A stretch of DNA of 46,314 nucleotides from a virus (lineage: Duplodnaviria; Heunggongvirae; Uroviricota; Caudoviricetes), in the IMG/VR virus record IMGVR_UViG_2880361019_000007, one strand, 5' to 3'. The position numbers are program-made. This document shows positions 24,001-30,000 of the stretch, one piece after another (position 1 is the stretch's first letter; every line of letters starts with the position of its first letter).

Positions 24001-27000
24001 GGTTCAGGAATCAGTGATGCGCATTGAGGCCGGACTGAGCACGTATGAGAAAGAGCTGGCGCTGATGGGCGAGGATTATCAGGACATTTTCCGCCAGCAG
24101 GTCAGGGAATCTGCAGAGCGGGAAAAAGCCGGACTCTCACGTCCGGTGTGGATAGCGCAGGCGTATCAGCAGCAGATAGCGGAGAGTCGCAGGCCGGAAG
24201 AGGAGACAACACCACGTGAGACGTAATCTTTCACACATTATTGCCGCAGCATTCAATGAACCGCTGCTTCTGGAGCCCGCCTATGCGCGGGTTTTCTTTT
24301 GCGCGCTCGGACGCGAGATGGGGGCAGCAAGTCTTTCGGTACCACAACAGCAGGTACAGCTTGATGCTCCCGGAATGCTGGCTGAAACGGACGAGTACAT
24401 GGCCGGAGGTAAACGACCGGCCCGTGTTTACCGGGTGGTGAACGGTATTGCGGTACTGCCGGTGACCGGCACGCTGGTGCACCGGCTGGGGGGGATGCGG
24501 CCATTTTCCGGAATGACTGGCTATGACGGCATTGTTGCCTGTCTTCAGCAGGCAATGGCAGATAGCCAGGTGCGGGGCATACTGCTGGACATTGACAGTC
24601 CGGGCGGGCAGGCCGCCGGCGCGTTTGACTGCGCTGACATGATTTACCGCCTCCGTCAGCAGAAGCCGGTCTGGGCACTGTGCAATGACACGGCCTGTTC
24701 TGCAGCCATGCTGCTGGCGTCGGCCTGCTCCCGACGGCTGGTTACCCAGACATCCCGTATCGGCTCCATTGGCGTGATGATGAGCCATGTCAGCTATGCC
24801 GGTCATCTGGCGCAGGCCGGTGTGGATATCACGCTGATTTACTCAGGGGCGCACAAGGTGGATGGCAATCAGTTTGAAGCCTTACCGGCAGAGGTTCGCC
24901 AGGACATGCAGCAGCGCATTGATGCGGCGCGCCGGATGTTTGCCGAAAAAGTGGCGATGTTTACCGGTCTGTCTGTTGATGCCGTCACGGGAACAGAGGC
25001 CGCTGTTTTTGAAGGTCAGTCCGGCATTGAGGCCGGGCTGGCGGATGAATTAGTCAATGCGTCGGATGCCATCAGTGTGATGGCCACGGCGCTGAACAGT
25101 AATGTCAGAGGAGGCACTATGCCGCAATTAACTGCAACGGAAGCCGCCGCGCAGGAGAACCAGCGAGTGATGGGGATCCTGACATGCCAGGAAGCGAAAG
25201 GACGTGAACAGCTTGCCACGATGCTGGCAGGACAACAGGGCATGAGCGTTGCACAGGCCCGGGCGATTCTGGCCGCGGCGGCACCGCAGCAGCCGGTGGC
25301 ATCCACGCAGAGTGAAGCCGATCGCATTATGGCGTGTGAAGAAGCGAACGGTCGTGAACAACTGGCGGCAACGCTGGCGGCGATGCCGGAGATGACGGTG
25401 GAAAAAGCCCGCCCGATCCTGGCTGCTTCACCGCAGGCGGATGCCGGACCCTCACTCCGTGATCAGATCATGGCACTGGATGAGGCAAAAGGGGATGAGG
25501 CGCAGGCTGAACAGCTGGCTGCCTGCCCGGGAATGACTGTGGAGAGCGCCCGGGCTGTGCTGGCTGCGGGATCAGGTAAGGCAGAACCGGTCTCTGCATC
25601 CACAACCGCCCTGTTTGAACGCATCATGGCGAACCATTCACCGGCAGCGGTACAGGGTGGCGTGCCACAGACGTCAGCAGACGGTGATGCGGACGTGAAA
25701 ATGCTCATGGCCATGCCATGAAGTCAGTGCTGATCATCAACAGGAGGTTTTTACAATATGGTAACGAAAACCATCACTGAACAGCGTGCGGAAGTACGTA
25801 TTTTTGCCGGTAATGATCCGGCTCATACCGCCACAGGCAGCAGCGGGATTTCCTCGGCAACACCGGCACTGACGCCCTTGATGCTGGATGAAGCCAGCGG
25901 GAAACTGGTGGTCTGGGACGGACAGAAAGCCGGTAGTGCAGTTGGCATACTGGTACTGCCGCTTGAAGGCACAGAGACGGTACTGACCTATTACAAGTCG
26001 GGGACCTTTGCGACGGAGGCAATCCGCTGGCCTGAAAGTGTGGATGAACACAAAAAGGCAAATGCCTTTGCCGGCAGTGCCCTGAGTCACGCGGCGCTGC
26101 CGTAACACGTTATCAGGCCACCGCGGTGGCCTGACTGATTGTGCACAGAAAACCCCCAGCTAGGCTGGGGGTTCTGGAAAGCTTTCAGCTTTGAGCCAGT
26201 TATTAAAACCCCTTTTGATTTGTTAAAACACCTTGCGGTCTGGCAACTGCAAGTGTCAAACAAGAAATCAAAAGGGGGTCCCAATGGGGAACGAAAAGAG
26301 CTTAGCGCACACCCGATGGAACTGTAACTATCACATAGTTTTTGCGCCAAAATACCGAAGACAGGTGTTCTACAGAGAGAAGCGTAGAGCAATAGGCAGT
26401 ATTTTGAGAAAGCTGTGTGAGTGGAAAAGCGTACGGATTCTGGAAGCTGAATGCTGTGCAGATCATATCCATATGCTTGTGGAGATCCCGCCCAAAATGA
26501 GCGTATCCGGCTTTATGGGATATCTGAAAGGGAAAAGCAGTTTGATGCTTTACGAGCAGTTTGGGGATTTGAAATTCAAATACAGGAACAGGGAGTTCTG
26601 GTGCAGAGGGTACTACGTCGATACGGTGGGTAAGAACACGGCGAAGATACAGGATTACATAAAGTACCAGCTTGAAGAGGATAAAATGGGAGAGCAGTTA
26701 TCGATTCCCTATCCGGGCAGCCCGTTTACGGGCCGTAAGTAAGGAAGTTGGATGCAAATGTCAGATCGTGTGCGCCTGTTAGGGCGCGGCTGGTAAGAGA
26801 GCCTTACAGGCGCATTTGAAAAACCTCCGGCTATGCCGGAGGATATTTATTGTGCACAGAAAACCCCCAGCTAGGCTGGGGGTTCTGGAAAGCTTTCAGC
26901 TTTGAGCCAGTTATTAAAACCCCTTTTGATTTGTTAAAACACCTTGCGGTCTGGCAACTGCAAGTGTCAAACAAGAAATCAAAAGGGGGTCCCAATGGGG

Positions 27001-30000
27001 AACGAAAAGAGCTTAGTGCACACCCGATGGAACTGTAAATATCACATAGTTTTTGCGCCAAAATACCGAAGACAGGTGTTCTACAGAGAGAAGCGTAGAG
27101 CAATAGGCAGTATTTTGAGAAAGCTGTGTGAGTGGAAAAGCGTACGGATTCTGGAAGCTGAATGCTGTGCAGATCATATCCATATGCTTGTGGAGATCCC
27201 GCCCAAAATGAGCGTATCCGGCTTTATGGGATATCTGAAAGGGAAAAGCGGTAATGACTCCAACTTATTGATAGTGTTTTATGTTCAGATAATGCCCGAT
27301 GACTTTGTCATGCAGCTCCACCGATTTTGAGAACGACAGCGACTTCCGTCCCAGCCGTGCCAGGTGCTGCCTCAGATTCAGGTTATGCCGCTCAATTCGC
27401 TGCGTATATCGCTTGCTGATTACGTGCTGCTTTCCCTTCAGGCGGGATTCATACAGCGGCCAGCCATCCGTCATCCATATCACCACGTCAAAGGGTGACA
27501 GCAGGCTCATAAGACGCCCCAGCGTCGCCATCGTGCGTTCACCGAATACGTGCGCAACAACCGTCTTCCGGAGCCTGTCATACGCGTAAAACAGCCAGCG
27601 CTGGCGCGATTTAGCCCCGACATAGCCCCACTGTTCGTCCATTTCCGCGCAGACGATGACGTCACTGCCCGGCTGTATGCGCGAGGTTACCGACTGCGGC
27701 CTGAGTTTTTTAAGTGACGTAAAATCGTGTTGAGGCCAACGCCCATAATGCGGGCTGTTGCCCGGCATCCAACGCCATTCATGGCCATATCAATGATTTT
27801 CTGGTGCGTACCGGGTTGAGAAGCGGTGTAAGTGAACTGCAGTTGCCATGTTTTACGGCAGTGAGAGCAGAGATAGCGCTGATGTCCGGCGGTGCTTTTG
27901 CCGTTACGCACCACCCCGTCAGTAGCTGAACAGGAGGGACAGCTGATAGAAACAGAAGCCACTGGAGCACCTCAAAAACACCATCATACACTAAATCAGT
28001 AAGTTGGCAGCATCACCGGGAAAAGCAGTCTGATGCTTTACGAGCAGTTTGGGGATTTGAAATTCAAATACAGGAACAGGGAGTTCTGGTGCAGAGGGTA
28101 CTACGTCGATACGGTGGGTAAGAACACGGCGAAGATACAGGATTACATAAAGCACCAGCTTGAAGAGGATAAAATGGGAGAGCAGTTATCGATTCCCTAT
28201 CGGGCAGCCCGTTTACGGGCCGTAAGTAAGGAAGTTGGATGCAAATGTCAGATCGTGTGCGCCTGTTAGGGCGCGGCTGGTAAGAGAGCCTTACAGGCGC
28301 ATTTGAAAAACCTCCGGCTATGCCGGAGGATATTTATTTCTGAATGAAAGGAACTGATTTATGGGATTGTTTACGACCCGCCAGTTACTCGGTTATACCG
28401 AACAAAAAGTGAAATTTCGTGCGCTGTTTCTGGAGCTGTTTTTCCGCCGTACGGTGAATTTCCATACCGAAGAGGTGATGCTGGACAAAATTACCGGAAA
28501 AACGCCGGTGGCGGCCTATGTCTCCCCGGTTGTTGAAGGAAAAGTGCTGCGTCATCGTGGTGGTGAAACCCGCGTGTTACGTCCGGGCTACGTCAAGCCG
28601 AAACACGAATTTAATTACCAGCAGGCGGTTGAGCGCCTTCCTGGTGAAGATCCGGCTCAACTGAACGATCCGGCTTACCGCCGTCTGCGTATCATTACCG
28701 ATAACCTCAAACAGGAAGAGCACGCGATTGTCCAGGTGGAAGAAATACAGGCGGTAAATGCTGTGTTGTATGGCAAATATACGATGGAAGGAGACCAGTT
28801 CGAGAAAATTGAGGTCGATTTTGGCAGGTCGACGAAGAATAACATCACTCAGGGTAGTGGTAAGGAGTGGTCAAAACAGGATCGTGACACGTTCGATCCT
28901 ACACATGATCTTGACCTCTACTGCGACCAGGCCAGCGGTCTTGTGAATATTGCCATTATGGACGGTACCGTCTGGCGTCTTCTGAATGGTTTTAAGCTGT
29001 TCCGCGAAAAACTGGATACCCGTCGCGGTTCAAATTCTCAACTCGAAACGGCAGTGAAAGATCTGGGCGCAGTGGTGTCCTTCAAGGGGTATTACGGCGA
29101 TCTGGCCATTGTGGTGGCGAAAACGTCTTATATAGCAGAAGACGGTATCGAAAAACGTTATCTGCCGGAGGGCATGCTGGTTCTGGGGAATACTGCTGCA
29201 GATGGGATCCGTTGTTACGGTGCCATTCAGGATGCGCAGGCGTTGTCCGAAGGTGTGGTGGCCTCTTCCCGTTATCCGAAACACTGGCTGACGGTGGGGG
29301 ATCCCGCCCGTGAATTTACCATGACGCAGTCCGCGCCGCTGATGGTGTTGCCGGACCCGGATGAGTTTGTGGTGGTACAGGTGAAATAATCCGTGAGCGG
29401 GGGCGAAATGCCCCCGTGTCTTTTTTCACAGGGGGCTGATATGGCAACGAAAGAGCAAAATCTGAAACGGCTTGATGAACTGGCCCTGATTCTGGGGCGT
29501 GAGCCGGATATATCCGGGAGTGCCGCAGAGATAGCGCAGCGTGTGGCGGAATGGGAAGAGGAAATACAGTCATCCGGCGAGGATGTTCAGGTTGGGGATA
29601 CGGTGATCCGGGAGCGGGAAACCGCGGCTCATGATGTTCGTGAGGATACATCCGGTGCGTTAACGCGCATCAGAGTTCTGACCTGCCTCCATCTCTGTGG
29701 CATTGATGGTGAAACAGGGGAATCCGTTGAGATTGCGGATGTTGGTCGGGTGATTCTGATTATGTCCTCAGATGCAAAAACACACGTTGATGGCGGAATG
29801 GCTGTTCATGCGTGATTTTCAGAATGCCTTTGATGCTGCCCTTGCCGGGGTGGACAGCACGATTGTTGAAGTGATGGGGCTCTGTGCGCAGTTCACCTCG
29901 GGGGCACAGTGTGGCAGCGAAGTTCAGGGGGTTTTTGACGATCCGGAGTCGCTGGGATTTGCCGGTAGCGGGGTCCGTATTGAAGGAAGCAGCCCGTCAT

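Follow-up and report, generated by a model that had tools for sequence, protein, structure and literature searches.

A head-to-tail pair of IS200C elements between the head genes D and E of a prophage, probably formed by two insertions at one retained target

Insertion sequences (IS) of the IS200 group, such as IS200 of Salmonella and IS1541 of Yersinia, are about 707 to 711 bp long, carry a single tnpA gene encoding a Y1 HUH transposase and have no terminal inverted repeats. They also share a terminator hairpin at the left end, a stem sequestering the Shine-Dalgarno sequence, the art200/STnc490 RNA and insertion without target duplication. IS200C has all of these properties, and two copies of it stand head to tail between the phage genes D and E in the DNA analyzed here, a stretch of 46,314 nucleotides from the IMG/VR virus record IMGVR_UViG_2880361019_000007 (Caudoviricetes), referred to below as the window. 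The element itself is identical in kind to those already described; what is unusual is the arrangement, in which two units abut and one of them is broken by an IS1. In our analysis the pair is likely to have arisen by two successive TnpA-mediated insertions at one target, a hairpin with a T-rich tail located after D.

In the wider IS200/IS605 family, the left end goes in 3' of a short target, and later transposition requires this target as well (PMC5027513). The target therefore survives insertion, and an occupied site can be used again. The single-strand "peel and paste" transposition of IS608 and ISDra2, a mode that IS200C presumably shares, keeps the target at the left flank, where the next excision requires it (PMC5027513). 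IS200C has a T-rich target with an invariant TT, which fits the target logic of these two elements. Their targets are plain tetra- or pentanucleotides (TTAC, TTGAT), whereas that of IS200C is nearly always preceded by a stable hairpin (63/67 insertions). Abutted copies are also formed by IS21, IS30, IS911 and IS256, all of them DDE elements, as (IS)2 dimers in which the abutted inverted repeats create a hyper-reactive junction, often with a strong promoter, and in which the dimer is an active intermediate. The window pair resembles these dimers in having head-to-tail abutted copies and a junction with the sequence expected of a circular intermediate. It differs in that its junction would have arisen incidentally, when a single-strand HUH transposase used one target twice. 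A promoter scan found no sigma-70-like site at the junction (26851/26852), and no sign of raised activity came to light, although no search aimed at it was made.

Tandem layout and the target after D

Two 711-nt IS200C units lie head to tail with zero spacer at positions 26138 to 28338, between D and E (Table 1). Repeat analysis of the window gave direct repeats at 26138-26437 and 26849-27148, spaced by 711 nt, and the second unit continues past a 768-bp break (26530-26716 corresponds to 28018-28204, and 26714-26851 to 28201-28338). Without the IS1 and one copy of its target duplication, the units can be aligned over their whole length at 99.3% identity; four substitutions and one 1-nt deletion separate them. 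The unit boundaries are ambiguous by the trinucleotide ATT, so that a division into 26138-26848 and 26849-28337 is equivalent to the one used in Table 1, 26141-26851 and 26852-28338. An earlier note on this DNA had described two IS200/IS605-type elements of about 711 bp in spacer-less direct tandem between D and E, and both the repeats and the Pfam matches agree with that description. Its further statements that copy 1 is intact and that an IS1 lies in tnpA of copy 2 also stand, given a full-length tnpA in the former and, in the latter, an IS1 with canonical ends and a 9-bp target duplication. The 1-bp difference in a C-run that it recorded between the copies is present as well, but the four substitutions had been overlooked.

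The left flank of the pair ends in ...CTGACTGATT and the right flank begins with TCTGAATG..., and joining the two gives the predicted empty site CTGACTGATTTCTGAATG. At least 1,001 E. coli records contain this site intact, with 80 nt matching at 100% identity, and the D-E junction is uninterrupted in about 1,856 complete genomes. Since the flanks rejoin into a common empty site, the 2,200-bp block is a clean insertion without target duplication. An O157 empty site reading GATTGCTG, as against the predicted GATTTCTG, had suggested altered IS boundaries; this possibility was rejected, as the difference is a polymorphism whose predicted T allele occurs in at least 1,001 records.

The hairpin at this site has a 9-bp G+C-rich stem that follows the stop codon of D, with a DNA fold energy of -10.5 kcal/mol, and the insertion lies 6 nt beyond it. 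Single IS200C copies occupy the identical D-E position in several E. coli prophages that differ in phage background and in IS variant, and the hairpin looks like a recurrent IS200C target. One of these single copies has an extra T at its right joint, and another has an extra GTT at its left joint. No phage record in INPHARED has an IS200 at the D-E site. A scan of IMG/VR returned no match to the tandem junction or to the IS1/IS200 junction; three contigs show the junction between D and the left end, located at contig ends.

The target logic of the family offers a simple route to the pair. A first IS200C would insert after the D hairpin without target duplication and would leave the target intact beside its own left end, where the retained target would double as the element's left cleavage site. 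A second IS200, in the form of a single-stranded circle, would then enter at the point where the hairpin tail meets the resident's left end, giving a precise junction of right end to left end (RE-LE). The T-run beside the resident left end would be the site at which TnpA cuts for excision, where the circle junction of a different copy could be joined. The tandem junction does have the sequence expected of a single-strand circle junction, which is no proof of a circular intermediate. Because the two copies of the window are sisters, the source of the second insertion would have been either the resident itself or a near-identical sibling within that genome. IS1 would have entered tnpA of copy 2 later, and point mutations would have arisen in both copies.

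Recurrent tandems and a terminator-type target

The same arrangement was sought in 5,426 complete E. coli genomes with a 100-nt query centred on the RE-LE junction, where a true junction is matched as one full-length piece. (A 160-nt query was uninformative, the left-end and right-end halves of single copies being merged into one place of about 718 bp.) Full-length matches were obtained in 55 of these genomes, although one of the 40 matches listed proved to be a joined two-piece match with no junction. All 11 of the matches that were sampled are tnpA-tnpA tandems. They lie at 10 distinct loci, each directly 3' of the terminator of a gene, namely ydgJ-add, fdnI-yddM, ydcL-ydcO, kdsA-ldr (in two strains), htpX-yebQ, prc-htpX, galU-hns, secF-yajD, topA-cysB and the prophage spacer between lom and a tail-fibre gene. 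With this number of genomes and at least 10 independent loci, the view of the earlier note that IS200 tandems are rare was overstated. As a rough estimate, about 0.7% of IS200 copies are in tandem, taking the number of copies to be about 8,000, or half of the 16,339 half-element places found. The members of the kdsA pair differ at 30 of 711 positions and those of the lom pair at 8, while several other tandems show 0 to 2 differences. The arrangement in the window is uncommon but recurrent, and no special mechanism is needed for it. Of the 10 tandem loci sampled, 4 have one additional T at the RE-LE junction; cleavage at the donor left end may sometimes fall 1 to 3 nt upstream within the T-run, with flank bases being carried along.

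A scan for the left-end hairpin, with one genome per species, gave 73 loci in many Enterobacterales, including Kluyvera, Citrobacter, Serratia, Brenneria and Phytobacter. The target itself was read from the left flanks of non-tandem copies in E. coli and other Enterobacterales, 67 of which were unique, and a flank was called terminator-like when it contained a hairpin whose DNA dG was no higher than -8 kcal/mol and which ended at most 9 nt before the left end. By this measure, a terminator-like hairpin precedes the left end in 63 of the 67 independent insertions, and positions -1 and -2 are T in every flank. The last four nucleotides are TTTT in 43 flanks, TATT in 12, TCTT in 4, TGTT and ATTT in 3 each, and GATT and GTTT in 1 each, so that TTTT or TATT accounts for 55/67. 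The GATT flank is the D-E site, represented in this set by a single-copy locus. The flank in the window also ends in GATT, and the target is retained beside the left end there as in other members of the IS200 group. At all of the sampled tandem loci, the left end likewise adjoins the T-run of the upstream gene's terminator.

How far T-runs alone would produce this pattern can be judged from control sites. At the same loci, terminator-like hairpins preceded 5.8% of TNTT sites, 13.9% of TTTTT sites and 13.7% of TTTT sites in sequence free of open reading frames (ORFs). Compared with the last of these controls, the 63/67 observed corresponds to an odds ratio of about 99 (Fisher p = 3e-45). This excess over ORF-free sequence indicates that the hairpin is part of the preference, beyond any by-product of selection against genic insertions. 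Neither IS200 tandems nor a terminator-type IS200 target is described in the searchable full-text literature, from whose coverage key older work is missing, and priority is not claimed. The near-absolute association of IS200 with terminator hairpins may be under-described.

Group IIC (class C) introns provide a parallel for such siting, as their homing sites lie 3' of attC stem-loops or intrinsic terminator hairpins, which places the introns immediately behind genes, at little cost to the host. They are like IS200C in lying 3' of a hairpin, but their mechanism is entirely different: they retrohome by means of a ribozyme and a reverse transcriptase and have no protein or sequence kinship with it. 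The homing of these introns is mentioned in PMC7923331. For IS608, double-stranded DNA beside the target is of no help to integration and can hinder it (PMC5027513).

A broader proposal is that the TnpA of the IS200 group is a structure-directed, terminator-homing transposase. We put this forward tentatively, the chance that it is both true and not already established being somewhat short of even. TnpA would read a terminator hairpin and its T-run as a surrogate for the element's own right end, which has the same architecture, and would place the element precisely where the T-run ends.

Two further sites can be mentioned. The terminator at ydcL-ydcO holds IS609 in K-12 MG1655 (1503161-1504908) and the IS200C tandem in YDC107, that is, two elements of the IS200/IS605 family at one site. 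K-12 was considered as the empty version of this locus and ruled out because IS609 occupies it. An enterobacterial IS200 left end also follows a terminator on a 276-nt contig of a Streptomyces assembly, with a coverage of 0.74 (NZ_JAVRBF010000753.1, 'Streptomyces sp. P17'), which is probably contamination.

Order of arrival and competing origins

By analogy with two other loci, at which the tandem can be compared with single-copy genomes, the newcomer in the window is probably the left-hand copy 1, the right-hand copy 2 being the older resident. At kdsA-ldr, about 256 genomes carry a single copy, and among those listed the annotation assigns 56/56 to the right member's type. Two of the single copies were compared by sequence; they have 0 to 1 differences from the right member and the same right-end tail, ATATTTTTT. 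The resident IS200C of this locus has this variant tail in place of ATATTTATT, and the variant is conserved in single-copy genomes. At the lom-tail fibre locus, a single copy is present in about 152 genomes; the two of these that were sampled match the right member with 0/711 differences and the left member with 8. Since the single copy equals the right member at both loci, the newcomer landed on the left, on the retained target. The heterogeneity of these pairs (30 and 8 differences) also excludes local duplication as a general cause.

Several observations weigh against this account of the window. At galU-hns, two single-copy alleles are mosaics of left-type and right-type sequence of the tandem members, with different switch points, and one of them is closer to the left member, so that arrival on the left may not be universal; these mosaics could reflect collapse of the tandem by recombination or an ancestral polymorphism. 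In the window itself the polarity is unreadable, the copies being sisters. The element's right end is a hairpin whose T-rich tail closes with TATT, which ranks second in frequency among target endings, and insertion after it is mechanistically possible. For sister pairs, a transposase-independent duplication via ATT/TT microhomology would give an identical junction. Finally, exact-protein look-ups of the two private TnpA products returned the source assembly alone (GenBank CP034212.1), and no second assembly of the lineage.

The first of the alternatives is that the second copy was inserted 3' of the resident right end, with CCTCCGGCTATGCCGGAGG and ATATTTATT mimicking the target, which would make copy 2 the newcomer and copy 1 the resident. 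The right end scores as terminator-like, its fold energy and tail length fall within the distribution of real targets, TATT ends 12/67 natural targets, and one of the galU-hns single-copy alleles is only 1 difference from the left member of the tandem. However, the resident is the right copy at both loci where the members can be clearly distinguished. If right ends were good targets, tandems should also be far commoner than the approximately 0.7% of copies estimated above, a rough figure. Copy 2 is the more damaged of the two, with an IS1 and a frameshift, and this fits a greater age, albeit as weak evidence. Taken together, insertion at the right end is unlikely. The replicative insertion next to its own end that had been suggested earlier is thus supported in part. 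Insertion beside an existing copy is upheld and is explained by the target rule, but the end was probably the wrong one, as the newcomer lies to the left at two loci.

Much less probable is a tandem duplication that did not involve the transposase, through slipped replication or unequal exchange at 2 to 3 nt of microhomology (ATT/TT) at the boundaries. The two copies are compatible with such an origin. When the window units were compared with 27 other IS200 copies, three derived substitutions proved private to copy 1, namely those at 26328 (Lys to Asn), 26542 and 26665 (His to Tyr). Private to copy 2 were one substitution, at unit position 166, and the loss of 1 nt from a CC run near 28201 (26713 in copy 1), which shifts the end of tnpA. 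The copies share six derived states relative to the commonest E. coli IS200C, a type from which copy 1 differs at nine positions, and they differ from each other at only five. On this comparison they are sisters that diverged after the duplication. (The Lys-to-Asn change at 26328 was considered as inactivating copy 1 and rejected, as Asn is native in Sulfolobus homologues.) ATT is present at both boundaries, and several other tandems have 0 to 2 internal differences. Against this, the junction lies exactly at the element ends, which microhomology has no reason to pick. The identical exact junction also recurs at 10 or more loci, in a search whose ascertainment was confined to RE-LE junctions, and pairs with 8 and 30 differences cannot arise in this way. 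Two successive insertions by TnpA at the retained target remain the preferred origin of the pair.

The assembly artefact that the earlier note had raised, a spurious expansion of a single IS200 copy, is scarcely credible: repeats are a classic source of misassembly and the exact-protein look-ups place the structure in one assembly only, yet an expansion would yield identical units, whereas each copy has private mutations, only one contains IS1 with its own target duplication, and equivalent arrangements are found in dozens of independent complete genomes.

Element features, neighbouring insertions and significance

The coordinates of the features discussed here are collected in Table 1. The elements can be placed in the IS200 group of IS200/IS605 by the Y1_Tnp domain, the STnc490/art200 match, the subterminal hairpins and insertion without target duplication, and their sole gene encodes a Y1 HUH transposase of about 150 aa. 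Near-identical RefSeq copies are annotated as IS200C (98.7-98.9% identity). The translation of copy 1 contains the HIH motif (HIHMLV) and the Tyr in DYIK. Its relatives in the Protein Data Bank (PDB) include 2ec2, 2f4f, 2a6m (IS608 TnpA) and 2xm3 (ISDra2), the nearest solved structures being the TnpA proteins of Sulfolobus, IS608 and ISDra2.

The left-end hairpin AACCCCCAGCTAGGCTGGGGGTT lies at 26151-26173 in copy 1, with its counterpart at 26862-26884 in copy 2, and the inverted repeats of the stem sequestering the Shine-Dalgarno sequence are at 26209-26224 and 26262-26277 in copy 1. Both copies match STnc490 of Rfam (RF01405; 26862-26985 in copy 2) with 146 bits against a gathering score of 56. 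In IS200, the left-end hairpin is a bidirectional terminator, the 5' stem is a translational repressor and art200 is an antisense RNA (PMC4513863). The STnc490 match is on the + strand, which is the tnpA strand, although the published art200 is an antisense RNA of the tnpA 5' untranslated region (UTR); palindromic content or the orientation of the model may explain this. The right-end hairpins (26824-26842 in copy 1 and 28311-28329 in copy 2) differ from those at the left end. A consensus scan found the right end of copy 1 to be terminator-like on the + strand, and its DNA fold energy of -10.0 kcal/mol and 9-nt tail are inside the range of natural targets.

Table 1. Features of the D-E insertion and its surroundings, in window coordinates
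Feature	Position	Strand	Basis or remarks
Head decoration gene, lambda D-like	25758..26105	+	ORF of 115 aa; Pfam PF02924 HDPD, E = 2e-24
Insertion target, G+C-rich hairpin 3' of D	26113..26140	+	Stem 26113-26121 / 26126-26134, tail CTGATT, abutted by IS200 left end
IS200C copy 1, structurally intact, probably the later arrival	26141..26851	+	711 nt; repeat family
Left-end structures of copy 1	26151..26274	+	Whole span matches Rfam RF01405 STnc490 (art200)
tnpA of copy 1	26284..26742	+	Y1 HUH transposase of 152 aa; Pfam PF01797 Y1_Tnp, E = 9e-38, profile 2-121 of 121
Right end of copy 1	26824..26851	+	Hairpin CCTCCGGCTATGCCGGAGG and tail ATATTTATT; RE-LE junction 26851/26852
IS200C copy 2, split by IS1 and frameshifted, probably the older resident	26852..28338	+	Alignment to copy 1
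IS1, 768 bp, in tnpA of copy 2	27250..28017	-	Canonical ends, 9-bp target duplication, Pfam domains DDE_Tnp_IS1, HTH_Tnp_IS1 and Zn_ribbon_InsA
insB'	27265-27768	-	Product confirmed by Pfam
insA	27687-27962	-	Product confirmed by Pfam
Right-end hairpin and tail ATATTTATT of copy 2	28311..28338	+	Joined to original right flank TCTGAATG, which matches the empty site
Major capsid gene, lambda E-like	28361..29389	+	ORF of 342 aa; Pfam PF03864, E = 1e-63

The genes on either side form a lambda-like D-E pair, in which the decoration gene (PF02924) is followed by the major capsid gene (PF03864), and over this module the identity to phage 21 and PhiR12-type phages is 87-94%. The nested IS1 has the canonical ends GGTAATGACTCC... 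and ...GGCAGCATCACC, imperfect terminal inverted repeats (GGTAATGACTCCAACTTATTGATAGTG and GGTGATGCTGCCAACTTACTGATTTAGTG) as expected of the IS1 family, and a flanking 9-bp duplication, GGGAAAAGC, at 27241-27249 and 28018-28026; its RefSeq matches are annotated as IS1A-like. A second IS1 lies inverted at 5126-5893, is 100% identical to the nested copy and has its own 8-bp duplication, TGAAAATG. Between them, the two inverted copies enclose 21 kb of the prophage, an interval that they could cause to invert. Because both duplications are intact, no inversion between these copies has occurred. An IS21-family element is located on the minus strand at 43605-45907, near the tail-fibre end of the prophage, and encodes an IstB of 249 aa (PF01695) and an IstA of 513 aa (rve and the Mu-transposase C-terminal domain). 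With 2.2 kb of nested ISs in its head operon, a second IS1 and the IS21-family element, this IS-laden prophage is probably decaying.

The earlier note had also proposed that the insert would separate D from E transcriptionally. Late transcription in lambdoid phages is antiterminated by Q, and for this reason such a separation is doubtful. An IS200 is also present in the lambdoid genomes PhiR63_2 and Lambda_ev058, where it lies between ren and ninB directly after a tR2-like hairpin, ...CAGGCCTGC[A/T]GGTAATCGCAGGCCTTTTTATT. The joint at this terminator reads …GCAGGCCTTTTTATT followed immediately by GTGCAC, and is located at about 12.3 kb in PhiR63_2 and about 38.7 kb in Lambda_ev058. This position is within the N-antiterminated operon. 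Carrying an IS200 in an antiterminated operon is thus compatible with recovery as a phage genome, as in these two deposits.

A target that is not consumed provides a simple and testable account of where IS200 lands and of how its tandems originate. If terminator homing is true, it would explain why IS200 is almost always intergenic, co-oriented with the upstream gene and nearly harmless. It would also explain why elements of the IS200/IS605 family share sites, and why repeated use of occupied sites gives rise to tandems. Finally, it would bear on genome annotation, in which tandem IS200 pairs ought to be kept and not merged as artefacts, on the long-noted 'dormant but multi-copy' behaviour of IS200 and on its strand and orientation bias.

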